Part shown: one piece after another, positions 1,397-61,101 of the stretch
Position numbering within the stretch: position 1 is the first letter of the stretch
Layout: each line of letters opens with the position of its first letter
The notes under the pieces: model-generated
Database searches by the model: none
Told to the model about the DNA's origin: nothing
What the model saw: only the letters and a program-made list of their open reading frames with translations
DNA from: Lentisphaerota bacterium
GTDB lineage: Bacteria; Verrucomicrobiota; Kiritimatiellia; CAIQIC01; Lenti-01
Length of the DNA stretch: 64,000 bases
NCBI GenBank assembly: GCA_012514035.1
Contig: JAAZBB010000015.1
Span: 31,077-95,076 of the forward strand
Reading direction: 5' to 3'
Program-made: the position numbers and the translations under genes

Positions 1397-2007
1397 TTCC
1401 GCGCATCGCCATCCTGATATCCGGCCGCGGCAGCAACATGGTCGCGCTGGCCGAAAGCGTGTGTAGCGGGGTGCTGGCCGGGTGCTGCGAAATCGCGGCT
1501 GTGATCTCGAGCCGCCCCGGCGTTCCGGGGCTTGCCAAGGCGCAGGAACTGGGCCTGCCGATCGTCGCGCTCGACGCCCGCGCCTTGGGCAAGGAAGCCT
1601 ATGACGCCGCCTTGCTGCTGGCCCTGGAACAGGCCCGCGCCGACGTGGTTGTGTTGGCCGGATACCTGCGCATTGTTTCGCCGCGGGTGGTCGCAAAATA
1701 CCGCGGCCGGATTTTGAACATCCACCCGGCCGACACGAAGCTCCACCAAGGACTCCACGGCTACGAGTGGGCCTTCGCCAACGAATTGGCTGCGACGAAA
1801 ATCACCGTCCATCTCGTGGACGAAGGCCTCGACACCGGCCCCGTCCTCGCGCAGCGCGAGGTGGATCTCCGCGGCACAGGCATCCTCGAAGAAGTCGAGC
1901 GCCGCGGCCTCGCCGTCGAACACCGGCTTTATCCCGAAGCCTTGAAAACCTTTTTAACTACGAATTACCCGAATTTCGCGAATGGAACCCCATCCTGTGA
2001 ATCCTGA
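1393..2007 (+). CDS. purN: phosphoribosylglycinamide formyltransferase
   Basis: IAILISGRGSNM...HPADTKLHQGLHGYEWA is the PurN family. GTG start overlaps the purD stop (GTGA). The last ~17 codons are encoded by the CGAATT/ATCCTG repeat element. Confidence 0.85.
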   Translation: MIPRIAILISGRGSNMVALAESVCSGVLAGCCEIAAVISSRPGVPGLAKAQELGLPIVALDARALGKEAYDAALLLALEQARADVVVLAGYLRIVSPRVVAKYRGRILNIHPADTKLHQGLHGYEWAFANELAATKITVHLVDEGLDTGPVLAQREVDLRGTGILEEVERRGLAVEHRLYPEALKTFLTTNYPNFANGTPSCES

Positions 2008-2042
2008 ACCATCCTGTAATCCTGTCTAAAAAAAATATAATT

Positions 2043-3476
2043 ATGTGTGGAATCCTGGGCATCATCGGACACGACGACATCGCCGGCACGCTGCTGGAGG
2101 GCCTGACAGCGATCCAGCACCGCGGCCAGGACGCCGCCGGCATTGTCACCTTCAACCACCGCTTTCACCTGCACAAGGCCGACGGGCTCGTCAGCCAGGC
2201 CTTCAAAAAGGTGGACCTGGCGCGGTTTTCCGGCCGGATCGGGCTGGGTCACGTGCGCTACGCCACGCAGGGCTCGACCGACGTGCTCGATGCGCAGCCG
2301 ACGGTGGTGATGTATCCCTTCGGCCTTGCGATGGTCCACAACGGCAACGTTGTCAACTTCAGCCAGCTCAAGCAGACGCTCTGCGAGGATGCCCACCGTC
2401 TGCTGGACACATCCAACGACGTGGCCCTGATCCTCTACGCCCTCGCTGCCGCGCTTGAAACCAAGAATCTGAAAGCTCTGACTCCCGACGCCATTTTCGA
2501 TTCGGTGCAGGCGGTGCAGGACAAGGTGCAGGGCGCGTATTCGGCGCTGACGATCATCGCTGGCCACGGTCTGCTGGCCTTCACCGATCCCCACGGCATC
2601 CGGCCGCTGGTGCTCGGCCGCAAGTACACCGACCGCGGCATGGTCTACGCCTTTGCCTCGGAAACCGACTGTTTCGATTATCTCGGCTTCGAGCTGATGC
2701 GCGACCTGCGGCCCGGCGAGGCCGTGCTGATCGACACCGCCGGCAAGGTCCACAGCCGGATCTGCCGCGCTGGACCGCAGGCCTTCTGCGTGTTCGAGTA
2801 CATCTACTTTGCGCGCGAGGATTCGGTGATCAACGGACGGCTGGTGGCCAGCGAACGCGTGTGCCTCGGCCGGCAGCTCGCCGAGCAGGTCCGCAAGGCG
2901 GGGCTCCAGCCCGACATTGTGATTGATGTGCCCGCGTCGGCCTATTTCTTCGCCTCCGGAATGGCAGAGGCGCTGGGCGTGCCTTACCGCCGCGGGCTCG
3001 CCAAGAACAACCACATCGGCCGCAGCTTCATCGTGCCGAACCAGGCGCGCCGCGAAAAAATCGTGCGCCAGAAGCTCAACCCGCTCAAGGATGTTGTGCG
3101 TGGCCGAAAGGTGGCGGTTGTGGACGACTCGATCGTGCGCGGCACGACCTCGAAGCACATCGTCAAGCTTCTGCGCGAGAGCGGCGCCGCCGAAATCTAC
3201 TTCGTTTCCGCGGCGCCGCCGATCACGTGCCCCTGCATCTACGGCATCGACATGTCCGTCAAACGGGAGATCATCGCCGCCCATTACGATCCCAGGCAGA
3301 TCGCCCGCTATCTCGAAGCCGACGCCGTCATCTACCAGTCGCTCGACGACCTGCGCGCGCGCTACTGCGATCTGCCCTGCTGCTATGCCTGCTTTTCGGG
3401 CGAGTATCCCACCGGCGCATCGGAGGAAGTCCTCAAGCAATTCGAACAGGAGAAGGAATGCTCCGCCCGGATCTAG
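2043..3476 (+). CDS. purF: amidophosphoribosyltransferase
   Basis: MCGILGIIGHDD... with Ntn-hydrolase Cys2 and a PRTase domain (VVDDSIVRGTT). Confidence 0.95.
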   Translation: MCGILGIIGHDDIAGTLLEGLTAIQHRGQDAAGIVTFNHRFHLHKADGLVSQAFKKVDLARFSGRIGLGHVRYATQGSTDVLDAQPTVVMYPFGLAMVHNGNVVNFSQLKQTLCEDAHRLLDTSNDVALILYALAAALETKNLKALTPDAIFDSVQAVQDKVQGAYSALTIIAGHGLLAFTDPHGIRPLVLGRKYTDRGMVYAFASETDCFDYLGFELMRDLRPGEAVLIDTAGKVHSRICRAGPQAFCVFEYIYFAREDSVINGRLVASERVCLGRQLAEQVRKAGLQPDIVIDVPASAYFFASGMAEALGVPYRRGLAKNNHIGRSFIVPNQARREKIVRQKLNPLKDVVRGRKVAVVDDSIVRGTTSKHIVKLLRESGAAEIYFVSAAPPITCPCIYGIDMSVKREIIAAHYDPRQIARYLEADAVIYQSLDDLRARYCDLPCCYACFSGEYPTGASEEVLKQFEQEKECSARI

Positions 3477-5329
3477 AACACATCGCCGTCCTCGATTTCG
3501 GCGGGCAGTACGCGCACCTGATCGCGAACCGCGTGCGCGGGCTGGGCGTCTACTGCACCGTGCTGCCGCCCGAGAATTTTCGGCCGGGCGCCGATCCGCG
3601 CCTCGCCGGCCTGATCCTCTCCGGCGGCCCGCAGTCGGTGTCCGCCGACCACGTGGCCCTGATGCAGCCCCGGCTCGCGGGCTTCACCAAGCCGATCCTC
3701 GGGATTTGCTTCGGCCACCAGTTGCTCGCCAAACTGTTCGGCGGCGGCCTCGCCCGCGGCCGCGAACGGCAGTACGGTCCCACACCCATCCGCTGCGATC
3801 CGAGGACGCGGCTCTTTCATGAATTGCCGGCGGAGCAATTGGTTTGGATGAGCCACGGCGACCACGTCGCCCAGCTGCCGGACGGCTTCCGTGCCACGGC
3901 GTCAGCCCCCACGTGCGCCATTGCGGCCTACGAGGCGGAAGGCCGCCCCGTCTTCGGCCTGCAGTTCCATCCCGAAGTCGTCCACACCCCCCATGGCAGC
4001 GCCATGCTCAGGAATTTCCTCGAATTGTGCGCCATCCGCACGCCATGGATCCCCGAAAGCATGAAGCAACGCGTCATCGGGCAGACCCGCCAGGCGGCCG
4101 GAGATGCCATGCTCTTCCTGCTGGTCTCCGGCGGCGTGGATTCGCTGGTGACGTTGCAGGTATGCATCGCGGCCGTCGGTGCCGACCGCGTCCGCTCACT
4201 GCACGTGGACACCGGCCTGATGCGCCTCGGCGAGTCGGATGACATCCTGAAATTCCTCGCCGCCGAAGGCTTCCGCAACATCGAAATCGAACGCGCCGAG
4301 CCGGTCTTTTTGCGCGAGCTCGCCGGCGTGGCCGACCCGGAGCAAAAGCGCGCCATCATCGGCCGCCTGTTTGTCGAAGTCCTGCGGAAGAAATTGCAGG
4401 CGCTGAACCTCGGCGACAACTGGAAACTGGTGCAGGGCACGATCTATCCCGACACCATCGAAAGCGGTGGCACCCCGAACGCCGCCAAGATCAAGACTCA
4501 CCACAACCGCGTGCCGGAAATCCAGGCCATGATCGAGCGCGGACTCGTCGTCGAACCCCTGCGCGAACTCTACAAGGACGAGGTCCGCCGGCTCGGCCGC
4601 GAACTCGGCTTGCCGCAGGCCCTGCTCGACCGCCATCCGTTCCCCGGCCCCGGCCTTGGCATCCGCCTGCTCTGCCACGACGGCCAAACGCCAGTGCCCC
4701 CGGAATTCGCCGATCAGCCGCGGCTTGACCACATTTTGCAGTCTGGAGCCGGGACGCCCTCGTCCCGGAAATCTAAATCCACCCGACGAGGGCGTCGGGT
4801 CTCCATTTTGCAAGGCCGCATCCTGCCGGTGAAGAGCGTCGGCGTGCAGGGCGACGAACGCTCCTACCGCCATCCGGCCGTGATCTGGAACCCGGCCGGC
4901 AAACTTCCGGATTGGCCAATGCTCAACACCCTCGCCAACCGGCTCGTCAACGAATTGGCCGACATCAACCGCGTCGTGCTCTGCCTCGACGACCTGACCC
5001 GCGAGCACTTCGAGCTGCGCAAAATGTTCGTCACCCGCGAAGGACTTGATCGGTTGCGCCGGGTGGACGACCTCCTGCACAGTTGCATCGCGCACATCCC
5101 GGAAATCTGGCAGGCGCCGGTCATATCGCTGCCGCTGTTCGACCGGCAGGGCAACCAGGCTTTCGTGCTGCGTCCGGTCTGCTCGAAGGATGCCATGACG
5201 GCCGACGTGTATCCCATCGCTTTCGATTTGCTGGCCGAGCTGGCTGAAAAAGTCCGCGCCGTGCCTGGCGCCGGGCACCTCTTCTACGACCTGACCACCA
5301 AACCGCCGGGGACCATCGAATGGGAATGA
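3458..5329 (+). CDS. guaA: GMP synthase (glutamine-hydrolysing), long form with duplicated C-terminal dimerisation-like region
   Basis: Class I GATase (GICFGHQLL, HPEV), PP-loop SGGVDS, C-terminal KPPGTIEWE. ATG 3458 overlaps the purF 3' end by 19 nt. 623 aa against a typical ~520. Confidence 0.88.
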   Translation: MLRPDLEHIAVLDFGGQYAHLIANRVRGLGVYCTVLPPENFRPGADPRLAGLILSGGPQSVSADHVALMQPRLAGFTKPILGICFGHQLLAKLFGGGLARGRERQYGPTPIRCDPRTRLFHELPAEQLVWMSHGDHVAQLPDGFRATASAPTCAIAAYEAEGRPVFGLQFHPEVVHTPHGSAMLRNFLELCAIRTPWIPESMKQRVIGQTRQAAGDAMLFLLVSGGVDSLVTLQVCIAAVGADRVRSLHVDTGLMRLGESDDILKFLAAEGFRNIEIERAEPVFLRELAGVADPEQKRAIIGRLFVEVLRKKLQALNLGDNWKLVQGTIYPDTIESGGTPNAAKIKTHHNRVPEIQAMIERGLVVEPLRELYKDEVRRLGRELGLPQALLDRHPFPGPGLGIRLLCHDGQTPVPPEFADQPRLDHILQSGAGTPSSRKSKSTRRGRRVSILQGRILPVKSVGVQGDERSYRHPAVIWNPAGKLPDWPMLNTLANRLVNELADINRVVLCLDDLTREHFELRKMFVTREGLDRLRRVDDLLHSCIAHIPEIWQAPVISLPLFDRQGNQAFVLRPVCSKDAMTADVYPIAFDLLAELAEKVRAVPGAGHLFYDLTTKPPGTIEWE

Positions 5330-6663
5330 AGTTTCAAATCCGAAATGCCTGCTGGCTCGGCGACGACGCCTGGTTCCACCACGGCACAATTTCCATCGCG
5401 AACGGTCGCATCATGAAGCTGGAGAGCGACTTTGCCAGCGACACGCCATCCGCCGGCGAATTCATTGTGCCGGGGCTGATCGATGCCCACGTCCACCTGC
5501 GCGAGCCGGGGCAACCCTACAAGGAAGGCATCGCCAACGGGACGCTCGCCGCGCTCAAGGGCGGCGTGACCACCGTGCTCAACATGCCCAACAACGTGCC
5601 GCCGACCGCCTCCCTCGCGCGGCTCGAAGCCAAGCGCGCGCTGTTCGCCCAAAAATCGCGCGTCAACTACGGCCTGTTTTTGCAGGCCCGCATCGGCGGC
5701 CCGCGCGCGCCGGAGAGTGCCGCCGGCGTCAAGATCTACATGGCCAAATCGTCCGCCCTGGCCGCGGTCCGCGACCCCGCCGCTCTCGCCCAGATCTTCC
5801 GCCTTCAGAACCGCGTGGTCGTCCACGCCGAGGACGAGCGGGAGTTTTCCACAGGGTGGAAAAAAAGTTTCCACAGGGTGGAAAAAACGGGCGAAATTTT
5901 CCACAGTGTGGAAAAAAGTTTTCCACAGTGTGGAAAACTTCCCCATCACCTGCGCCGGCCGCGGGCGGCGGTGGTTGCGGCCTTGCAGAGCATCGCCACG
6001 GCCTGGCGGCGGGTGCCACCGAAAGAGCGGCCGCGGCTGGTCATCGCCCATTGCAGCACCGTCGAGGAAATCGACTGGGTGCGGAAGATGAAGCGGCAAG
6101 GCCACGACGTTTGGGCCGAAACCTGCCCGCACTATTTCCTGTTCACCGAACAGGATGATCGCGCGCGCGGCCCGGCATTGCAGGTGAATCCGCCGCTGCG
6201 GACCGAAGAAGACCGCGCGGCGGTTTTTGCGGCGGTGCAAGACGGCGGCATTGATTTCATCTCGACCGATCACGCGCCGCATTTGCCGAAGGAAAAGGCG
6301 GCGGACTCGCCGCCGTCGGGCATCGCGGGCCTGGAATGGTTCGGGCCGGTTTTGCTGACGCTGACCATGCGCGGGGAAATCTCGTGGCAGCGCTACCTAA
6401 AGCTGGCCGGCCAAAAGGCCGCGCAGTGCTACGGGATCGAAGGCCGCGGGCTGGTGCGCGAAGGCGCTTGGGCCGATCTGGCGATCGTGGCGAACAAGCC
6501 GCCGGCGGCGGCCCAGGAAAAAATCGTGACCCGTGCAGCGGTTCACCCCTATCCGCAGTTCGAATTCGCCGTCGGCATTCGGGCTACGCTGGTCAACGGA
6601 CGGCTGGCATGGACGGATGGGCGCGTGCGACCCGGCGTACACGGCAGGGAGGTGTATGGGTGA
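5320..6663 (+). CDS. pyrC: dihydroorotase (amidohydrolase superfamily)
   Basis: DAHVHLREPG HxH motif, VHAEDE, TCPHYF, STDHAPH. Sits in pyrimidine gene context. Carries an in-frame AT-rich tandem repeat at 5845-5938. Confidence 0.8.
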   Translation: MGMKFQIRNACWLGDDAWFHHGTISIANGRIMKLESDFASDTPSAGEFIVPGLIDAHVHLREPGQPYKEGIANGTLAALKGGVTTVLNMPNNVPPTASLARLEAKRALFAQKSRVNYGLFLQARIGGPRAPESAAGVKIYMAKSSALAAVRDPAALAQIFRLQNRVVVHAEDEREFSTGWKKSFHRVEKTGEIFHSVEKSFPQCGKLPHHLRRPRAAVVAALQSIATAWRRVPPKERPRLVIAHCSTVEEIDWVRKMKRQGHDVWAETCPHYFLFTEQDDRARGPALQVNPPLRTEEDRAAVFAAVQDGGIDFISTDHAPHLPKEKAADSPPSGIAGLEWFGPVLLTLTMRGEISWQRYLKLAGQKAAQCYGIEGRGLVREGAWADLAIVANKPPAAAQEKIVTRAAVHPYPQFEFAVGIRATLVNGRLAWTDGRVRPGVHGREVYG

Positions 6664-7280: not shown

Positions 7281-8032
7281 TGGCCAAGCAATACAAAATC
7301 ATTCCTGCGCTCGACACGGCCGACCTCGGCGCGGCGCTGCGGCTGGTGTGCCGCGTGGCGGGGCGCGAATCCGTCTACGGTTTCAAGCTGGGCTTCGCGC
7401 TGGGGCTGGGCCATGGCCTGCCCGAGACCGTCCGGCGCATTCGCGAGTGGACCGACAAGCCCCTGATCTACGACCACCAGAAGGCGGCCACCGACATTCC
7501 AGACACGGGTGCGCTTTTCGGCGACGTGATGAAAACGGCCGGCATCAACGAGGTGATCCTGTTTCCGCATACGGGCCCGCGCACGCTCGCGGCGTGGACG
7601 CAGGCGCTGCAGGAACGGGATCTCAAGGTCATTGTCGGCGCGGTGATGACGCATCCGGCCTATCTGGTATCGGAAGGCGGGTTCATCGCCGACGCGGCCG
7701 CGGCGGCGATCTGCAAGCAAGCGGCGGGATTGGGTGTAGCGGCGTTCGTGGTGCCGCTGACCAAGCCGGAAGTCGTGGCCAAATTGGCGCAGGAGGTGCC
7801 CTTCACGGTCCAGCAGGAATTCTACTCGCCGGGCTTCGGCGCGCAGAAAGGCGACCCGGCGCGGTTTCCAATGCTGGCCAGGCATTACCTGATCATGGGC
7901 CGGTCGCTGCTTGCCGCCGCGGACCCGGCGAAGGAACTGGCCAACACCGAAAAACAACTGGGAATAGGAGAGGCGACAGGATCCACAGGATGGACAGGGA
8001 TAAAAGCAGGATCGAAATCCTGTACATCCTGA
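7280..8032 (+). CDS. pyrF: orotidine 5'-phosphate decarboxylase
   Basis: IIPALDTADL...LIYDHQKAATDIPDTG (D-x-K-x-x-D-I-P-x-T motif). ATG overlaps the pyrE stop. C-terminal tail is encoded by the CAGGAT/ATCCTG repeat block. Confidence 0.75.
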   Translation: MAKQYKIIPALDTADLGAALRLVCRVAGRESVYGFKLGFALGLGHGLPETVRRIREWTDKPLIYDHQKAATDIPDTGALFGDVMKTAGINEVILFPHTGPRTLAAWTQALQERDLKVIVGAVMTHPAYLVSEGGFIADAAAAAICKQAAGLGVAAFVVPLTKPEVVAKLAQEVPFTVQQEFYSPGFGAQKGDPARFPMLARHYLIMGRSLLAAADPAKELANTEKQLGIGEATGSTGWTGIKAGSKSCTS

Positions 8033-8060
8033 TCATCCTGCAATCCTGTCTAGAACGAAT

Positions 8061-8996
8061 ATGAAAAAAGACCTGATCTCGATTGACGACCTGCGGCTGG
8101 AGCAGATTCTGAACTATCTCGACCTCGCGGCGCGGGTGGCGGCGATTCCGGACGCGGAAAAGTTCCGTTTCCTGCCGGGGCGGATTCTGGCGACGCTGTT
8201 CTTCGAGCCCAGCACGCGCACACGGCTGAGCTTTGAATCGGCCATGACCCGGCTCGGGGGACGGGTCATCGGGTTTTCGGAGGCGGCGGGCTCCTCGACG
8301 GCCAAGGGCGAATCGTTCTCCGACACGATCCGGACAGTGGAGCAGTATGCCGATATCATCGCAGTGCGGCACCCGAAGGAGGGCACAGCGCGGCGGGCGG
8401 CCGAGATCAGCCGCCTGCCGATCCTCAACGCCGGCGACGGCGCGAACCAGCACCCGACCCAGACGCTGCTGGACCTCTACACGATACGCAAGTTCTTCGG
8501 CCAGGTGGACGGCCTGCGGATCGCATTGGTGGGGGATTTGAAATATTCGCGCACGATCCATTCGCTGTGCCGGGCGCTGCTGATGTTCGACGGGGTGGCC
8601 ATGACCCTGGTGTCGCCCGAGAGCTTGAAACTGCCCGGCTACCTGCTGAAGGCGGCCAAAGGAACAACGGCCACCTTCCGCGAGACCAGCAGCCTGGAGG
8701 AGGCCATCCGCGAAACCGATCTCGTCTACATGACCCGCATTCAGAAGGAGCGTTTTCCCGACGTGGTGGAGTACGAAAAGGTCAAGGATGCCTATGTGCT
8801 GGAGGCCGGAATGCTCGCCGGCGTACCGGCCCGCTTCAAGGTGCTGCATCCGCTGCCGCGGGTGAACGAGATTTCGCCGGACGTGGACGCCACGCCGCAT
8901 GCGGGCTATTTCGAGCAGGCCCGCAACGGCGTGATCATGCGCGAGGCCCTGATCCTCGACTTGCTCGATGCCCGGCCGGCAAGGAGCACGCCATGA
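8061..8996 (+). CDS. pyrB: aspartate carbamoyltransferase catalytic subunit
   Basis: STRTRLSFE, HPTQTLLDLYTI and HPLP motifs. Confidence 0.95.
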   Translation: MKKDLISIDDLRLEQILNYLDLAARVAAIPDAEKFRFLPGRILATLFFEPSTRTRLSFESAMTRLGGRVIGFSEAAGSSTAKGESFSDTIRTVEQYADIIAVRHPKEGTARRAAEISRLPILNAGDGANQHPTQTLLDLYTIRKFFGQVDGLRIALVGDLKYSRTIHSLCRALLMFDGVAMTLVSPESLKLPGYLLKAAKGTTATFRETSSLEEAIRETDLVYMTRIQKERFPDVVEYEKVKDAYVLEAGMLAGVPARFKVLHPLPRVNEISPDVDATPHAGYFEQARNGVIMREALILDLLDARPARSTP

Positions 8997-14949: not shown

Positions 14950-16671
14950 TTAAATCCGCTCAGGGGTTTCGATGCCGAGCAGGTCCAGCCCGTGGCGGAG
15001 GACCTTGGCCGCGAGATCGCACAGGCGCACGCGGCTTTCGCGGAGGCCGGCGTCGGCCTTGAGGAAGGGAACGTTCTGGTAGAAGGAAGAGTACGCCTGC
15101 GACAGGTCGTAGAGGGCATCGGCGAGGAGCGAGGGTTTTTCCTGTTCGGCGGCATCGCGCACGGCGTCGGGATAGCGCGCGAGGCGCAGGGCCAGGCGGC
15201 GGGCCTGCGGAGTATCGAGGTCGAGGGGCACGCGCATGAAGTCGATGCCGGGGAAGCGCTCGGCATGCTTGTCGATGACGGAGGCGATGCGGGCGTGGGC
15301 ATATTGCAGGTACGGCGCGGAGTTGCCGTCCATGGCCAGGGCTTTCTCCCACGTGAAGGTCACGGCCGACTGCGGATTCTGCGAGAGGTCGGCGTATTTG
15401 ACGGCGCCGATGCCGACGGCACGGGCAACGGCCTGCTGCTGGCTGGCGGGCATGTCGGGAGAGGCGGTTTTGACGATCTCCAGAGCGCGCTTTTCGGCTT
15501 CGTCGAGCAGCAGGTCGAGCTTGATGGCGTTGCCCATGCGCGTGGAGAGCAGTCCGTCGGGAAGGCGCATCAGGCCGAACCAGACATGGCGCAGCGGGGT
15601 TCGCACGCCGGCTTTTTGCGCCACGGCGAAAAACTGGCGGAAATGGAGTTGCTGGCGCTCATCGGTCACATAGATGATGGCATCGGGACGAAATTCCTCG
15701 ACGCGCGAGAAGACGGTGGCGAGGTCTGTGGTGGCGTAGTTGTAGCCGCCGTCGGACTTGCGGACGATGCAGGGCGGGAGCTTTTCATCATCGAGGAAGG
15801 CGACCAGGGCGCCTTCGGATTCGCGGACGAGCCCGAGGGCCTGCAGTTTCTCGATCAGGGCGGGGAGCGCATCGTGGTAATAGGATTCGCCGCGGGTCAG
15901 TTCGAAGGAGACGCCCAGGCGCCCGTAGATGCGAGCGAGGTCGGCAAGCGACACCTCCATGAACTTGCGCCAGAGGGCACGGTTTTCCGAGTCGCCGGCT
16001 TGCAGCTTCACGAGTTCGGCCCGGCACTGGTCCTCCCAGGCGGGGTCGGCCTCGGCCTTTTGGCTCGACAGCACATAGATGCGTTCCAGTTCGTGAACCG
16101 GAGCGGCCGCGAATTGGGCGGGGTCGAGGAAGTGGCGGTAGCCCATGATGAGTTTGCCGAACTGGGTGCCCCAGTCGCCGAGATGGTTGTCGCTGATGAC
16201 GGTGCAGCCCAGGGCGCGGTGGATGCGCTTGAGGGCGTCGCCAATGACCGTGGAGCGGATGTGGGCGACGTGCATCGGCTTGGCGACGTTCGGCGAGGAG
16301 TAGTCGAGGATCAGCGTCTGGCCGGCACCCGGTTGCGGGATGCCGAGGAGGGGATCGGCCTGCATGGCTTCGAGATGGCGCGCCAGGGCGGATTCGGAAA
16401 GCGTCAGGTTGATGAAGCCGGGCCCGGCGATCTCCGCCCTGGCGCTCAGGCCATCAGCGGGAATCCGGGCGGCAACCTGTTCGGCGATTTTGCGCGGCGG
16501 CAGGCGCAGGACCTTCGCGGCGGCCATGGCGCCGTTGCACTGGTAGTCGCCGAAGGCTTCGTCGCCGGCGGGCAGGGCGTCCAGCGGCAGGCCGGAGAGG
16601 TCCGCGCCGGGAAACGCCGCTTGAAACGCAGCCCGAAGGTGCGCGGACAGGATTTCTTTGAGCGTCTGCAT
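14950..16671 (-). CDS. argS: arginine--tRNA ligase
   Basis: Class I aaRS HIGH-like PMHVAHIRSTVIGD, a KMS-like region, and a 573-aa length typical of ArgS. Confidence 0.95.
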   Translation of the reverse strand: MQTLKEILSAHLRAAFQAAFPGADLSGLPLDALPAGDEAFGDYQCNGAMAAAKVLRLPPRKIAEQVAARIPADGLSARAEIAGPGFINLTLSESALARHLEAMQADPLLGIPQPGAGQTLILDYSSPNVAKPMHVAHIRSTVIGDALKRIHRALGCTVISDNHLGDWGTQFGKLIMGYRHFLDPAQFAAAPVHELERIYVLSSQKAEADPAWEDQCRAELVKLQAGDSENRALWRKFMEVSLADLARIYGRLGVSFELTRGESYYHDALPALIEKLQALGLVRESEGALVAFLDDEKLPPCIVRKSDGGYNYATTDLATVFSRVEEFRPDAIIYVTDERQQLHFRQFFAVAQKAGVRTPLRHVWFGLMRLPDGLLSTRMGNAIKLDLLLDEAEKRALEIVKTASPDMPASQQQAVARAVGIGAVKYADLSQNPQSAVTFTWEKALAMDGNSAPYLQYAHARIASVIDKHAERFPGIDFMRVPLDLDTPQARRLALRLARYPDAVRDAAEQEKPSLLADALYDLSQAYSSFYQNVPFLKADAGLRESRVRLCDLAAKVLRHGLDLLGIETPERI

Positions 16672-16690
16672 AACAGCCGGGGAACCTTAA

Positions 16691-17101
16691 CTACGAATTA
16701 ATCGAATTGCACGAATGGGAAGGGGCTAGAAAACGTTCATATTCCAATTTGGGATAGTGACTGAAATTGACCAGCAAAGCCAGTATCTTGCCGGTAGCTT
16801 TCAGGTAATTGATGACTTGGGCGCGGTGTTCGTCGCTCAAGTTCTTTGCCGACTTGATTTCCACGATGATTTTATCGAAACAGAGAAAATCCGGTTGATA
16901 AGTTTGTTTGAGGGATTTCGTTTTGTAGCACAGTTTCAGTTGGGGATGCTCGATAAATGGGATGCCTTGATCTCTGAACTCCATTGCCAGGCATTCCTGA
17001 TAGACCGCTTCCAGGAATCCGTGTCCCAATTGATTGTAGACTTCGAAACAGGCTCCAACGATCTTGAAGCTTTCTTCCTTGAACAGGATTTCGGTTTTCA
17101 T
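16691..17101 (-). CDS. GxxExxY protein (PDDEXK_3 nuclease-superfamily-like)
   Basis: GACFEVYNQLGHGFLEAVYQECL matches the GxxExxY signature. Local GC is roughly 40% against ~65% in the flanks. Its ATG lies inside a 27-bp terminal inverted repeat. Confidence 0.7.
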   Translation of the reverse strand: MKTEILFKEESFKIVGACFEVYNQLGHGFLEAVYQECLAMEFRDQGIPFIEHPQLKLCYKTKSLKQTYQPDFLCFDKIIVEIKSAKNLSDEHRAQVINYLKATGKILALLVNFSHYPKLEYERFLAPSHSCNSINS

Positions 17102-17141
17102 TCGTTTAATTCGCGCAATTCGTAGTGGGTCTTCCGGCGGT

Positions 17142-17927
17142 TCAGCACTCGCCGAATTCGCTGGGCCGGTCGGGATGGGTGGGCAGGACGCGGATGCGGT
17201 CGAGGCCGGCGGCGGCCAGGCGGTTGCGGACGATCTGCATGGCCAGCTCGAGGGTGTTGCACTCGCGGCTGAGATGGGCCAGGAAGACTTGCTGGAGGGT
17301 CTCGCCGGCGATTTCAGTCAAGAGCATCGCGGCGGTTTCGTTGGAGAGATGTCCCTGGCGGCCACGGATCCGCTTTTTGAGGGCCCAGGGCCGGAAGGAA
17401 TTCTGCAGGAGGGTTTCATCGTGGTTGGCCTCCAGCACCAGGAGCTGGCAGCCGCGCAGGCGCTCGCGGGTCACCTGGGTGGGGATGCCGAGGTCGGTGG
17501 CCACGCCCAGGCGGGAGGTGCCGCAGGTCAGGACGAATCCGACGGGATCGTAGGCGTCGTGAGGCAGGGGGAAGGGCAGGATTTCGATGTCGCCGATGGC
17601 GAAGCGCGAGCCGGAACTGAAAAGGTTCCAGGGCAGATCCTGGGCGTTCCGGATGGCGAGAGCGGTATCGCGGTTGGCATACAGGCCCAGACCGAGCCGC
17701 TTGTGAAGCTGGAGCAAGCCGGCGATGTGATCGGCATGCTCGTGCGAGATGCAGATGGCGCGCAGCTTGGCGGGATCGAGGCCGGCCGCGGCCATCCGGC
17801 GCAGGGTTTCCCGCGCGGACAGCCCGGCGTCGATGAGGAGTGCCGTGGTCGGGCTTTCCACATGGATGCAATTGCCGCTGCTGCCGGAGGCGAGCACGCA
17901 AACGCGGAGTTGGGTGGCAGGGGGCAT
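17142..17927 (-). CDS. MBL-fold metallo-hydrolase
   Basis: HEHADH metal-binding motif. Start set at MPPATQLRVCVLASGSSGNC. Confidence 0.75.
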   Translation of the reverse strand: MPPATQLRVCVLASGSSGNCIHVESPTTALLIDAGLSARETLRRMAAAGLDPAKLRAICISHEHADHIAGLLQLHKRLGLGLYANRDTALAIRNAQDLPWNLFSSGSRFAIGDIEILPFPLPHDAYDPVGFVLTCGTSRLGVATDLGIPTQVTRERLRGCQLLVLEANHDETLLQNSFRPWALKKRIRGRQGHLSNETAAMLLTEIAGETLQQVFLAHLSRECNTLELAMQIVRNRLAAAGLDRIRVLPTHPDRPSEFGEC

Positions 17928-27292: not shown

Positions 27293-27738
27293 CCGCAGAG
27301 GACCGCAGAGGAACACAGAGAAATATCCCGTGCTTAGCAGGAAAACAGGAAACCCAGGAAAACAGGAAGGGAATGATAGCCATTTTTCTATCACGCGAAG
27401 GCATGAAACCACCGGCTGCGGACAGGGAAGGCAGGGACGCCACTGAAACCTTCTCACGCTGAAGCGGGTACTAATAACGAGTTGTGTTTGTAGTCCAGCC
27501 TTTCAGGCTGCAAATTCGGCTTTTTATCGCGAAAAACGCCCCTTTTTGATGAAAATTTCAATAAATTGCCGGATTTTTGATTATTTTGCCTAAAAAATGC
27601 CTAAAAAATGCCAAAAATATGCCAAATTTTCCTGTTTTCCTGTTTTTCCTGCTTTCTTGCTTCGGTTTTGGGCTGTTCCTCCTGTAAATTTTGAAAAATT
27701 CTGTTCCTCCTGTCTAAATTCTTAGTAATTTGACCAAA
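27293..27738. promoter_or_regulatory. AT-rich structured intergenic region with inverted (CAGGAAAA)x3 / (TTTTCCTG)x3 arrays and TGCC-A6 tandem repeats
   Basis: 27338-27369 CAGGAAAACAGGAAACCCAGGAAAACAGGAAGG and 27627-27652 TTTTCCTGTTTTCCTGTTTTTCCTGC are inverted. TGCCTAAAAAA appears twice in tandem. TTCCTCCTGTCTAAATT appears twice before the ATG at 27739. Confidence 0.5.
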
Positions 27739-59008: not shown

Positions 59009-59653
59009 TCAACTGAGGTGATTTTCCCACAGAACGGCCTGCTGCATCAAGTGGGACAGGTCGCCCAGGCGCAGCTTTCTTTTGATCCGGAGTCGATAGG
59101 CATGCACGGTATATTCGCTCAAGTGCATCACTTCGGCAATATGCTGGGTTGTGTAGCCCTTGCCGAGGAATCGAAAGAGTTCCAATTCGCGATCCGACAG
59201 CAGGTCCCGGGGTGCCTCGGAGAAAGTCCGGGCGTTGCCTGATGCCACTGGGTCCGAACGCGCCTGACCGCTGAGCACGGTCTTTACGGTACTCAGCAGC
59301 TTCTCAGGTGAGGCAGATTTGGGAAGGAATTCGCACGCGCCCGAGCGGAAGAGCCGAGGGGCATACTCTTTTTCATCGAGGACACTGAAAACGAGAATGG
59401 GGGTTTGATGGTGAAATTTAGAAAAAAGCCAGACGAGTTTAAGACCGTCACAGTCTCTGATTGCCGGCTCCATGATGATCAGGTCGGGGTGGGGACGATG
59501 CAGCCACTGAAGGCATTCATCCCGAGTCGCGGCTACTCCGATAACCTCCAGTTGGGCTTGCCGAGTCAACCAGGCAGTCAATCCTCTGGAGACGGCAGGA
59601 TAAGGTTCCACCAGCAGAATCCGCCTCCGGCCAGGTTCAGAAGCACTCATCAT
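59009..59653 (-). CDS. response regulator, NarL/LuxR family
   Basis: REC domain (ILLVEPYPAV, DLIIMEPAIRDCDG) plus a LuxR helix-turn-helix (HIAEVMHLSEYTVHAYRLRIKRKL). Confidence 0.85.
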   Translation of the reverse strand: MMSASEPGRRRILLVEPYPAVSRGLTAWLTRQAQLEVIGVAATRDECLQWLHRPHPDLIIMEPAIRDCDGLKLVWLFSKFHHQTPILVFSVLDEKEYAPRLFRSGACEFLPKSASPEKLLSTVKTVLSGQARSDPVASGNARTFSEAPRDLLSDRELELFRFLGKGYTTQHIAEVMHLSEYTVHAYRLRIKRKLRLGDLSHLMQQAVLWENHLS

Positions 59654-59991
59654 GTTTACATGATTACTGCCAAATACATTCGAATATCAAGAAAACAGTA
59701 TCATGAATTCAGCCAGACTCGGAAACGCCGCGTCGTTACTGATTCCCAAAAGTATACAAAAAACCCCGATAGACTTAACGCCTGCGATTGTGCCAATTTC
59801 AAAACAAGCGGGAGTCTCATTATGTATAAGTATATACAATAAGAATATTGACTCACACATGTGAAGATGCTTGACGGCCTCTGTGTTCAGTAGTCAAACT
59901 ATTTATGGAAAAAGAACCTTACCAGACAGAATGTCATCCGGTGACATAATGAGCGGACCACAACTAGCGAATTCAAAAGGACAATCGAACG

Positions 59992-61101
59992 ATGAGCCAG
60001 GGCAAATCCAGGATAGCGGTGATGGTGCTTCTAATCGGTTCTGTTATCATGGCATCAGGGGCAACGCCATATGTGGAAACATGGAATGAGGATATTCAGG
60101 GATGGGGGGATCGGGACGCCGCGGGCTTAGCTGTCCAACATGATTCTGAATCGGGCATTCCCCCGGGAGCCCTCATGGGGATGTTTTCGCCGCAGGAAGT
60201 TCCAATGCCCGAGGCGGACGCATTCCATGCAACCGCGACTTCCTCTGCCGGGGCATATATTGGAAATTATTGGCAAATGCAAGACGGATTCTTCGGCTGG
60301 CGTTTCGATTTCTATGCCGCGCGGGTGTTACCTTCGGATTTGGTGGTGCGTTTCGGCGGCGCCGGAAATGTGTTTTTTACCAATGTGAAACCCCAAGTGG
60401 GTGGCACCGGGACATGGTATGCCGTACAAACGCCGGCGACATATGAGGGTTGGTTTGGCGGCACCGAAATTCAATGGTCCAATGCTCTTGCAAACGTGGA
60501 GTTTGTCGAGGTGCAATTGACCCGCAACACAACGCAAGAACAAATCTACTACATAGATAATTTCAGCAATACATCGGAAGATTCAAGCGGGGTTGTATTA
60601 TATTACTTTATCGCACGGGAGGAAAACGGCCATGTTGTGCTCCACTGGCGTACGGCCTCGGAAAATGACACGGTTGGATATTGGGTGGAACGTTGGGATC
60701 GGACCCATTGGGTTCGGGTGAATGACGAAATCATCTATGCTCGCGGTGATGACGGCATGGGTACCGCATATGCCCTGGTGGATGATAAGGCAAAAGCCGG
60801 TGTCGCTTATCGCTATCGATTGGTGGAGGAAGAGGTCGAGGGCGAACAGGTATATGGCCCATTTCACCGGATCGCAAGTGCACTGGCATTCCCTTGTCCG
60901 GTTATGCCAGCGCAGGAAGGAATGTGCATTCGTTGGTTAAGTCGTCAGGGCGAGAATTATAATATTCTGCGGACCAGTGACATGTGCGATGGATTTGTTC
61001 CGATCGCCATCGGCATCGCCGCCACGCCTCCAGAGAACGAATACATCGACAAAACGGCCGGAAGCAGAGGAATTTACCGGATCGAATTGCAGGAAGACTG
61101 A
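59992..61101 (+). CDS. secreted hypothetical protein (paralog family 1)
   Basis: Signal-peptide-like N-terminus MSQGKSRIAVMVLLIGSVIMASGA. About 52% GC. Roughly 45% identical over ~250 aa to the start of the next gene. Confidence 0.5.
   Translation: MSQGKSRIAVMVLLIGSVIMASGATPYVETWNEDIQGWGDRDAAGLAVQHDSESGIPPGALMGMFSPQEVPMPEADAFHATATSSAGAYIGNYWQMQDGFFGWRFDFYAARVLPSDLVVRFGGAGNVFFTNVKPQVGGTGTWYAVQTPATYEGWFGGTEIQWSNALANVEFVEVQLTRNTTQEQIYYIDNFSNTSEDSSGVVLYYFIAREENGHVVLHWRTASENDTVGYWVERWDRTHWVRVNDEIIYARGDDGMGTAYALVDDKAKAGVAYRYRLVEEEVEGEQVYGPFHRIASALAFPCPVMPAQEGMCIRWLSRQGENYNILRTSDMCDGFVPIAIGIAATPPENEYIDKTAGSRGIYRIELQED

Follow-up and report, generated by a model that had tools for sequence, protein, structure and literature searches.

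Inverted nonamer arrays bracket a GxxExxY nuclease gene between the MBL and argS genes of a Lentisphaerota bacterium

Introduction

The gap between argS and the gene for an MBL-fold hydrolase in a 64,000-nucleotide stretch of contig JAAZBB010000015.1 (positions 31,077 to 95,076; here 'the window'), from the Lentisphaerota bacterium assembly GCA_012514035.1, holds a single small nuclease gene lying between inverted repeats, and the question raised by this locus is whether the gene and its repeats form an element that moves, one that has settled, or a host gene with its expression signals. An earlier note, made from the letters of the window, had read the unit at 16687-17125 as a compact mobile, cassette-like element in which the repeats are the termini of the gene and double as its translation signals. 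We find that a cassette of inserted origin is supported and that a currently mobile one is not, and that the window cassette is one instance of a widespread class of GxxExxY genes bracketed by arrays of short repeats, typically co-directional with their neighbours in strings of genes.

In a survey of PD-(D/E)XK proteins, the family to which the nuclease belongs, PF13366, is listed as being of unknown function and as having undergone multiple transfers between lineages (PMC3424549). Full-text searches of the literature returned incidental mentions of GxxExxY only, and no description of the arrays, of repeat strings or of their link to GxxExxY, although such absence is not proof of novelty.

Results

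The low-GC unit between inverted CGAATT-type triplets is in all details as the earlier note described it. Its single open reading frame (ORF), of 136 codons, begins with ATG and matches both the PDDEXK_3 and the GxxExxY profiles, and with a GC content of 0.44-0.45 the unit is AT-rich against flanks of 0.65-0.72. A repeat finder returns arms of 28 nt that are 82% complementary, which are terminal inverted repeats (TIRs) of the kind that define TIR transposons, insertion sequences (ISs) and miniature inverted-repeat transposable elements (MITEs), and each arm is built of three CGAAT(T/G) cores 9 nt apart (Table 1). The start codon (17101-17099) is part of CGAATG, the inner unit of the right-hand arm, and the TAG stop codon (16693-16691) lies at the outer end of the other arm, which also encodes the last eight codons of the gene (HSCNSINS). 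The unit sits in a 470-bp gap between the argS start (16671) and the MBL stop (17142), and the MBL, nuclease and argS genes are co-directional, all on the minus strand. A search of 16400-17400 found neither promoter-like nor terminator-like sites, and in Rfam the cassette has no match at E values up to 10 and the region 16400-17400 no hit. Because of the co-orientation, the tiny spacers and the lack of promoter or terminator signals, the cassette is probably part of an operon transcript. When a 457-nt transcript is folded, an arm-arm stem is predicted in both the minimum free energy and the centroid structures (z = -2.9; none of 100 shuffles folds as well), giving a terminal stem (11+6+7 bp) that encloses a small ORF, comparable to the stem of ~28 bp in rRNA intervening sequences (IVSs); the prediction buries both the AUG and the final nine codons in this stem.

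The signal in the arms is the triplet at 9-nt spacing, since the lone hexamer CGAATT is at chance level in the window (47 observed vs 46 expected). The 18-base pattern CGAATTNNNCGAATTNNNCGAATG matches three times (1961+, 16694+ and 17099-) against 0.06 expected, a number reached by none of 100 shuffles. The solo copy of the triplet that the earlier note had placed before purF is indeed present. The 3' arm lies within coding sequence, and the C-terminus reads S..S..S in 76 of the 120 closest homologues, the residue preceding each such serine being nearly always H, N, D or Y (codons NAT TCG) or L, F, I or V (NTT TCG). Because these residues fit NAT-TCG and NTT-TCG codon pairs, ATTCG or TTTCG of the 3' arm appears to be conserved as nucleotides and not as peptide.

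Table 1. Features of the window discussed in the text.
Feature	Position	Strand	Description
MBL-fold hydrolase gene	17963-17142	-	40-nt spacer to cassette
5' arm	17099..17126	-	minus strand ACTACGAATTGCGCGAATTAAACGAATG; three CGAAT-core units at 9-nt spacing; last ATG is the nuclease start
GxxExxY/PDDEXK_3 gene, 136 aa	16691..17101	-	ORF call and profile matches
3' arm	16690..16717	-	minus strand CATTCGTGCAATTCGATTAATTCGTAGT; ends 19 nt ahead of the argS ATG
Predicted long-range RNA stem	16680..17136	-	11+6+7 bp with two 2x2 internal loops; closes the whole ORF
argS	16671-14950	-	19-nt spacer to cassette
Solo CGAATT array	1957..1984	+	ACTACGAATTACCCGAATTTCGCGAATG; within the final codons of the purN ORF, 58 nt ahead of the purF ATG
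Four-unit ATCCTG array	1992..2026	+	spacing 9, 10 and 8 nt; directly after the solo array; 3'-type arm, non-complementary to its neighbour
Cargo-less hairpin	7975..8050	+	CAGGAT/ATCCTG nonamer arrays; ends 10 nt before an ATG at 8061
Composite intergenic element	27293..27660	+	CGCAGAG array 27293-27320; CAGGAA array 27338-27370; inverted TTCCTG array 27627-27660

The window holds one GxxExxY gene, and its relatives were sought elsewhere. Eighty GxxExxY loci, at 45-77% identity to the window protein and so representing a subfamily, were fetched from metagenomes with the protein as the sole criterion. On inspection nearly all of them carry inverted tandem arrays, and the counts use the 74 loci that have at least 100 nt of flank on each side. 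The arrays were detected by their cores, since variable spacers let most of them escape a strict test of periodicity (15 of 18 matches). A 5-mer repeated at a lag of 9 or 10 nt occurs within 150 nt of the gene in 70 of the 74 loci, upstream in 58, downstream in 60 and on the two sides at once in 48, with control frequencies of 0.32 in 175-nt background windows and 0.2-0.3 at other lags. At 28 of the 48 loci the two cores, upstream and downstream, are reverse complements of each other (mean 9.9 and maximum 18 when loci are permuted), and 60 cassettes have an arm-to-arm alignment score of 13 or more. In the usual layout the start codon directly adjoins the 5' array and the stop codon is overlapped or followed by the 3' array, each array having about three units at 9 nt, sometimes 10. 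All units in both arms of a cassette share one core, and the cores differ between cassettes, being CGAAT here and CGAAA, CAGAT, CGGAT, CGAAC or CAAAA elsewhere; the variants include CACGAATT, CACGAAA, CACGAACC, CACAGATT, CGCAGATT, CGCGGATT, CACGGAA, CACAAAA, CACTGAT and CGCTAATT, as well as 10-nt versions such as CGCGAATGCA. Low GC characterises the family, the gene being below its flanks at 59 of 62 loci by a mean of 8 points, and the nearest long ORF lies on the same strand in 46 of 52 cases upstream and 35 of 41 downstream.

Cassettes were also recovered through the DNA motif alone, with a full GxxExxY gene between arms in two Prevotella loci (L053 and L061) and in L095, and a frameshifted one between two complete hairpins in a member of the Chloroflexia (L030). 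At L027 a 75-codon C-terminal GxxExxY remnant lies between arms 209 nt apart, and among the matches listed, arms 200-450 nt apart always enclose a GxxExxY gene or remnant. GxxExxY genes account for 21 of the 24 ORFs of 70-260 aa with arrays at both ends, in a search in which 80 of the loci had been preselected for GxxExxY.

The history of the window locus can be read from its relatives. The source labels on ArgS homologues name a Kiritimatiellia/Kiritimatiellae metagenome-assembled genome. The exact nuclease protein is indexed in 286 blocks of the collection searched, and in 23 of the 23 contigs read it lies in one context, MBL-GxxExxY-argS. A search for empty sites, which the earlier note had proposed, found the junction in several states. 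It is filled by a full cassette in three relatives with ArgS proteins 88% (L205), 79% (L124) and 76% (L125) identical to that of the window, the last two values referring to the N-terminal part of ArgS only. It is decayed in L204 (ArgS 91%), where an internally deleted cassette has two 5'-arm units fused to the last ~45 codons and a degraded 3' arm. The gene is absent from L206 (ArgS 83%), where a lone 3'-type arm with TTTCG cores lies within a 60-nt spacer, and from L207 (ArgS 80%), where there is nothing and the argS ATG is overlapped by the MBL stop, and the junctions of these two gene-less alleles differ from each other. At the filled loci the nuclease is 82, 77 and 69% identical to the window protein (L205, L124 and L125, respectively), dN/dS (the ratio of non-synonymous to synonymous substitution) for the nuclease against its orthologues is ~0.07, and GC at third codon positions is 0.56-0.63 in the nuclease gene vs 0.84-0.91 in the flanking genes. 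In the orthologous loci of L205, L124, L125 and L204 the spacers between cores drift freely, and both the CGAAT cores and the CTAC...GTAG ends are kept.

Since the divergence of the nuclease tracks that of its neighbours, with dN/dS of ~0.07, a long vertical residence under selection is indicated, and the comparison suggests that the cassette is an old insertion or acquisition that is vertically inherited, selected, and now and then lost. Neither a second insertion site nor a transposase was found. The check for a target-site duplication that the earlier note had called for was also negative: the flanks (...gaccc/ACTACG... and ...CGTAGT/taagg...) share no direct repeat, and the same holds in L205 and L124. 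The proposal of a compact mobile element therefore divides into a part that stands, in view of the foreign composition, the discreteness of the unit and the filled, decayed and empty series, and a part that does not, current mobility, in view of the missing transposase and target-site duplication and the single context. The practical message is that the cassette appears to be a stable, selected resident of an essential-gene operon and not an active transposon.

We note that the remainder of the MBL-argS gap in L204 (700-2500) is filled by a 210-aa ORF without a Pfam hit and a gene for an N6/N4 DNA methyltransferase; in this closest relative sampled, the junction appears from its sequence to have taken up a second foreign module.

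The nuclease itself scores well above the cut-offs of both profiles, PF13366 PDDEXK_3 (E 5e-40, 136.9 bits, cut-off 22) and TIGR04256 GxxExxY (E 3e-40, 137.1 bits, cut-off 35), and its alignment-invariant residues are intact (G28-x-x-E31-x-x-Y34, E41, P70-D71 and E81-x-K83). The AlphaFold (AF2) model is confident (pLDDT 88.9), and the nearest solved folds according to Foldseek are Cas4 SSO0001, lambda exonuclease and RecE (E ~3e-4, TM ~0.5). These profile matches and the predicted fold identify the protein as a bona fide member of the GxxExxY/PF13366 family and, as modelled, a minimal PD-(D/E)XK nuclease domain that has no close relative among characterised proteins. A reading as a junction resolvase is unsupported, as a sequence search of the PDB gave nothing beyond T7 endonuclease I, at a non-significant E of 0.09. 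The nuclease has no match in the defence-system search with PADLOC, only a weak and generic endonuclease match in PHROGs, and no counterpart in annotated phages by tblastn. A conserved antisense ORF was also ruled out, as a stop-free antisense frame is present in just 6 of 80 genes. The family spans many phyla, a query with the window protein returning more than 7,000 clusters, and the labels Lentisphaerae, Deltaproteobacteria and Pseudomonadota occur on homologues of 71-76% identity. Such close homologues across phyla would fit horizontal movement over longer spans of time, with the caveat that these labels depend on the binning of metagenome-assembled genomes.

The earlier note had treated the repeats as private termini of the gene, which they are not, as the same arrays occur far more often as cargo-less hairpins or solo copies beside ordinary genes. 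A scan of one genome per species for ACGAATTNNNCGAATTNNNCGAAT matched at least 119 stretches, and all counts from it are among the matches listed. The carriers include, among others, Pirellulales, Prevotella and further Bacteroidales, Flavobacterium, Chitinophagaceae, Chloroflexota, Herpetosiphon, Acidobacteriota, Kiritimatiellota, WOR-3 and Poribacteria. Read in register, the repeating unit has nine bases, typically (C)CACGAATTn, and is commonly preceded by a T-run, and 132 of 213 arrays have three copies, the search pattern itself having demanded three. The pairing of arrays is strictly polar, with 36 forward-then-reverse pairs less than 100 nt apart vs two in the opposite order. The forward-reverse pairs are hairpins with CCAC...GTGG outermost and CGAAT inside, many of them perfect palindromes including the spacer positions, and they fold strongly (z = -10 in L052 and -11.5 in L060); none of 20 hairpin-bearing loci has an Rfam family at gathering score. 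Together with the solo copy at 1957-1984, these hairpins and solo arrays in many phyla show that the repeats of the cassette also occur dispersed, as do those of the repetitive extragenic palindromic (REP) type.

The arrays are also found in viruses. A scan of IMG/VR viral contigs for the CGAATT array gave at least 120 stretches (L208-L327), and among the matches listed the arrays are nearly always solo, sense-oriented and 0-20 nt upstream of the starts of diverse phage genes. An ORF starts within 80 nt downstream of 87 of 131 viral arrays. In 33 of these cases the start is no more than 3 nt from the end of the array, against none in antisense, and the proteins encoded downstream form 57 unrelated clusters; the arrays often come after a terminator-like hairpin and T-run. 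The earlier suggestion that the repeats act as translation signals receives unexpected support from arrays placed 3 nt or less from the starts of diverse genes, and the array is also some kind of gene-start-proximal module. Two homologous phage genes that both start ATGACAATAGGACTGATAGAC are preceded by different arrays (L230, array 5313-5336; L236, array 7351-7374): in one a CGAATT array abuts the ATG, and in the other the ATG is separated from the CGAATT array by a CACGGATT array. It seems that arrays of unlike core can replace one another at one position.

Several other arrays lie within the window. The purN ORF (1393-2007) runs through the solo CGAATT array, ~20 codons past its Pfam domain. 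The solo array and the four-unit array behind it (1957-2026) form a chimeric 'hairpin' that folds no better than shuffles (z = -0.75), and the solo copy is not conserved, as the purN-purF junctions of relatives have different arrays (L328) or none (L329, L330). The solo array was considered as the remnant of a GxxExxY cassette and rejected, since none of the relatives has a cassette at this junction, whose spacer is highly labile. The cargo-less hairpin at 7975-8050 has a predicted RNA fold of -37.9 kcal/mol (z = -5.25); the spacer between it and the ATG is CGAATATG, and the identical string precedes the nuclease start in L205 and L124. The inverted CAGGAA and TTCCTG arrays of the composite element enclose ~260 nt with a GC content of 0.31 and without a credible ORF. 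They are part of a 440-nt intergenic region (27293-27730) between genes for an ABC-transporter ATPase and a glycosyltransferase, which also has four TGCC-A-rich units spaced 11 nt apart (27587-27626), and this element may be a decayed or non-coding cassette.

Two further observations concern other parts of the window. A low-GC (0.37) intergenic segment at 59551-60101, which extends from a response-regulator gene (59653-59009, minus strand) to a 369-aa ORF starting at 59992, has no nonamer arrays. The identity of PurF (gene at 2043-3476) drops from 87-90% in the nearest relatives straight to ~72%, and the best named hits, at 65-70%, are from Calditrichota/KSB1 and not from bacteria of the Planctomycetes-Verrucomicrobia-Chlamydiae group; sparse sampling or a transfer of purF may explain this.

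Discussion

The reading that we favour, and which we consider somewhat better than an even prospect, is that the cassette is an ORF-in-palindrome element of inserted origin, now a vertical resident and co-transcribed with its operon, whose arms pair to close the ORF and whose cores have a sequence-specific reader. Foreign DNA would have inserted at the MBL-argS junction and been inherited vertically since, as a resident and not a jumping element, and it would be transcribed by read-through from the host operon. The arms are modelled to pair into an interrupted stem of ~24 bp that would close the ORF and sequester its AUG. By analogy, the stem could either gate translation of the nuclease or be a processing site for a double-strand-specific enzyme of the RNase III type, which would cut the cassette out of the operon mRNA. 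We favour a closing stem because the size, the stem length, the type of cargo and the composition match an ORF-bearing 23S rRNA IVS. A sequence-specific reader is implied because six units keep an identical core over dS (synonymous divergence) of 0.6 or more, and because pairing alone explains neither the identity of the core within each cassette nor the TTTCG present in all three units of L206. The encoded nuclease would be the most economical candidate for this reader, which would give a pairing of protein and dispersed palindromes like that of REPs and the tyrosine transposases associated with them (RAYTs).

A bolder version, which we regard as tentative and on the doubtful side, is that GxxExxY nucleases and nonamer arrays form an undescribed cross-phylum partnership like that of RAYTs and REPINs, in which each nuclease would recognise the core of its own arms and maintain or spread the cargo-less hairpins, or home into them, with the arrays doubling as gene-start modules, including in phages. 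The 16S rRNA was also considered as a target, through a putative complementarity of the CGAATTAAA unit to a conserved segment, and was dropped as the other cores could not share it.

Several findings weigh against the reading that we favour. Among the matches listed, GxxExxY genes are just three of the 146 ORFs that adjoin CGAATT arrays, the arrays being mostly cargo-less beside ordinary genes, and the viral arrays are solo and start-proximal, serving unrelated genes with no GxxExxY nearby. The arrays thus exist in their own right, in a way that the idea of recognition by the nuclease does not call for. Pairing of the arms leaves unexplained why the three units of an arm share one core. Arm mismatches read on the sense strand show no excess of G-U over A-C (79 vs 75), and with no such strand asymmetry selection at the RNA level is not favoured over selection at the DNA level, through a cruciform or protein binding. 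Neither an empty site with an intact target nor a target-site duplication was found among the relatives examined, and the sample is biased to homologues 45-77% identical, such that 'family-wide' here means a subfamily and a few distant cases.

Because the arrays exist independently, two rivals in particular have to be weighed. One is that the arms derive from the target, a REP-like hairpin having pre-existed in the host and the GxxExxY gene having entered its loop by site-specific insertion or by homing triggered by the nuclease. Cargo-less hairpins of the same polarity far outnumber cassettes (the 36 pairs against two, among the matches listed) and adjoin ordinary genes in many phyla and at 7975-8050 in the window, the arms of some cassettes are near-perfect (L156, L172, L131 and L189), and IS elements such as IS1397 and ISKpn1 insert into REP loops. 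However, the gene-less relatives have no intact hairpin at the MBL-argS junction, with one arm in L206 and nothing in L207, near-identical gene copies in different hairpins were not seen, and a 136-aa nuclease has no known integration chemistry, and we think this origin of the arms unlikely. The other is that the nuclease is an ordinary host gene with expression signals and with neither mobility nor self-recognition, the 5' array being a generic gene-start module, either a promoter or a translational leader where Shine-Dalgarno sequences are little used, and the 3' copy half of an intercistronic hairpin or a stabiliser. The start-proximal viral arrays argue for this, as do the position of the window arrays and hairpins just upstream of start codons and the co-orientation of cassettes with operons. 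Left unexplained are the inverted 3' copy that lies nearly always beside GxxExxY genes, the lower GC of the gene than of its flanks, the filled, decayed and empty states among close relatives, and the truncated genes between intact arms (L027 and L204), and we find an explanation through expression signals alone quite improbable.

An active, compact TIR-bounded cassette of the MITE or IS kind that moves in the host genome now is very improbable. The terminal inverted repeats, the low GC, the presence and absence in relatives, the close homologues in other phyla and the second, solo array at 1957-1984 could all suggest it, but the only ORF encodes a 136-aa nuclease and no transposase, there is no target-site duplication, the exact protein occupies one locus only in the 23 contigs read from many samples, the orthologues diverge in step with their neighbours at dN/dS of 0.07, and the solo array at purN-purF has no cassette in relatives.

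Comparison with described systems places the favoured ORF-in-palindrome element more closely. The IVS in the 23S rRNA of Coxiella is 428-444 nt long with a terminal inverted-repeat stem of 28 bp, a small ORF and GC below that of the genome, and is cut by RNase III (PMC4990558). The cassette shares with the 23S rRNA IVSs of Leptospira and Coxiella, whose ORF encodes an S23p four-helix-bundle protein, a length of ~430-440 nt and a terminal inverted repeat of 28 nt or bp that closes a single small ORF, as well as GC below the host, sporadic occurrence among relatives, vertical inheritance within a lineage and, probably, a position embedded in a host transcript. It differs in lying within a protein-coding operon and not in rRNA helix 25 or 45, in having as cargo a PD-(D/E)XK nuclease and not S23p, and in having arms of three 9-nt units with variable spacers and not a continuous stem. 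With REP/REPIN-RAYT systems it shares a gene between inverted copies of a short repeat that is found elsewhere too, as singletons and as intergenic palindromes, variants of the repeat that are specific to the copy of the gene, and a gene that is vertical at one locus under purifying selection; the outer ends in the cassette lineage, which read CTAC...GTAG, also resemble the GTAG tag of REPs (PMC3733652). Here, however, the flanked gene encodes a 136-aa PF13366 nuclease and not an HUH/Y1 transposase, and the repeats are tandem nonamer arrays and not GC-rich stem-loops of 6-9 bp. RAYTs are typically present in one copy per genome (PMC5581495), whereas the GxxExxY family has many members.

Free-standing homing endonuclease genes are similar in that a small AT-rich nuclease gene lies between conserved housekeeping genes and is present or absent in relatives, but they lack the inverted-array bracket, and in the cassette lineage the empty allele has no recognisable target and there is no sign of recent spread. 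MITEs, TIR transposons and integron cassettes are likewise compact, bounded by inverted repeats and, like the unit here, may carry a single promoterless ORF. The unit is unlike the transposons in its lack of transposase, target-site duplication and multi-copy identity, and unlike integron cassettes in having tandem-nonamer repeats at both ends and not a single 3' attC, no GTTRRRY core sites, and MBL and argS as neighbours. By their defining features the cassette is none of TIR transposon, integron cassette, REP/RAYT or 23S IVS, and it would work most like the last two.

We also note two loci encountered by chance (L176:5340-5870 and L016:150-760) in which genes for four-helix-bundle proteins, of the 23S-IVS-protein/Avd-like kind, lie between inverted tandem arrays whose period is 7 nt (CTAGTnn and GCAAGAC). 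Such a bracket may be general to both families of small genes, with a period specific to the cargo, with two examples only. The two cases hint at a wider class of ORF-in-palindrome cassettes; we found just one member of it described, the rRNA intervening sequence.

GxxExxY proteins are abundant and of unknown function, and the array bracket, the co-orientation with operons and the low GC provide a first concrete and testable handle on them. The array, whether as DNA, cruciform or RNA, is a candidate substrate for the nuclease, and the closing stem is a candidate for its regulatory logic. Arrays with cores conserved across phyla may themselves be an unrecognised class of bacterial repeat comparable to REPs.

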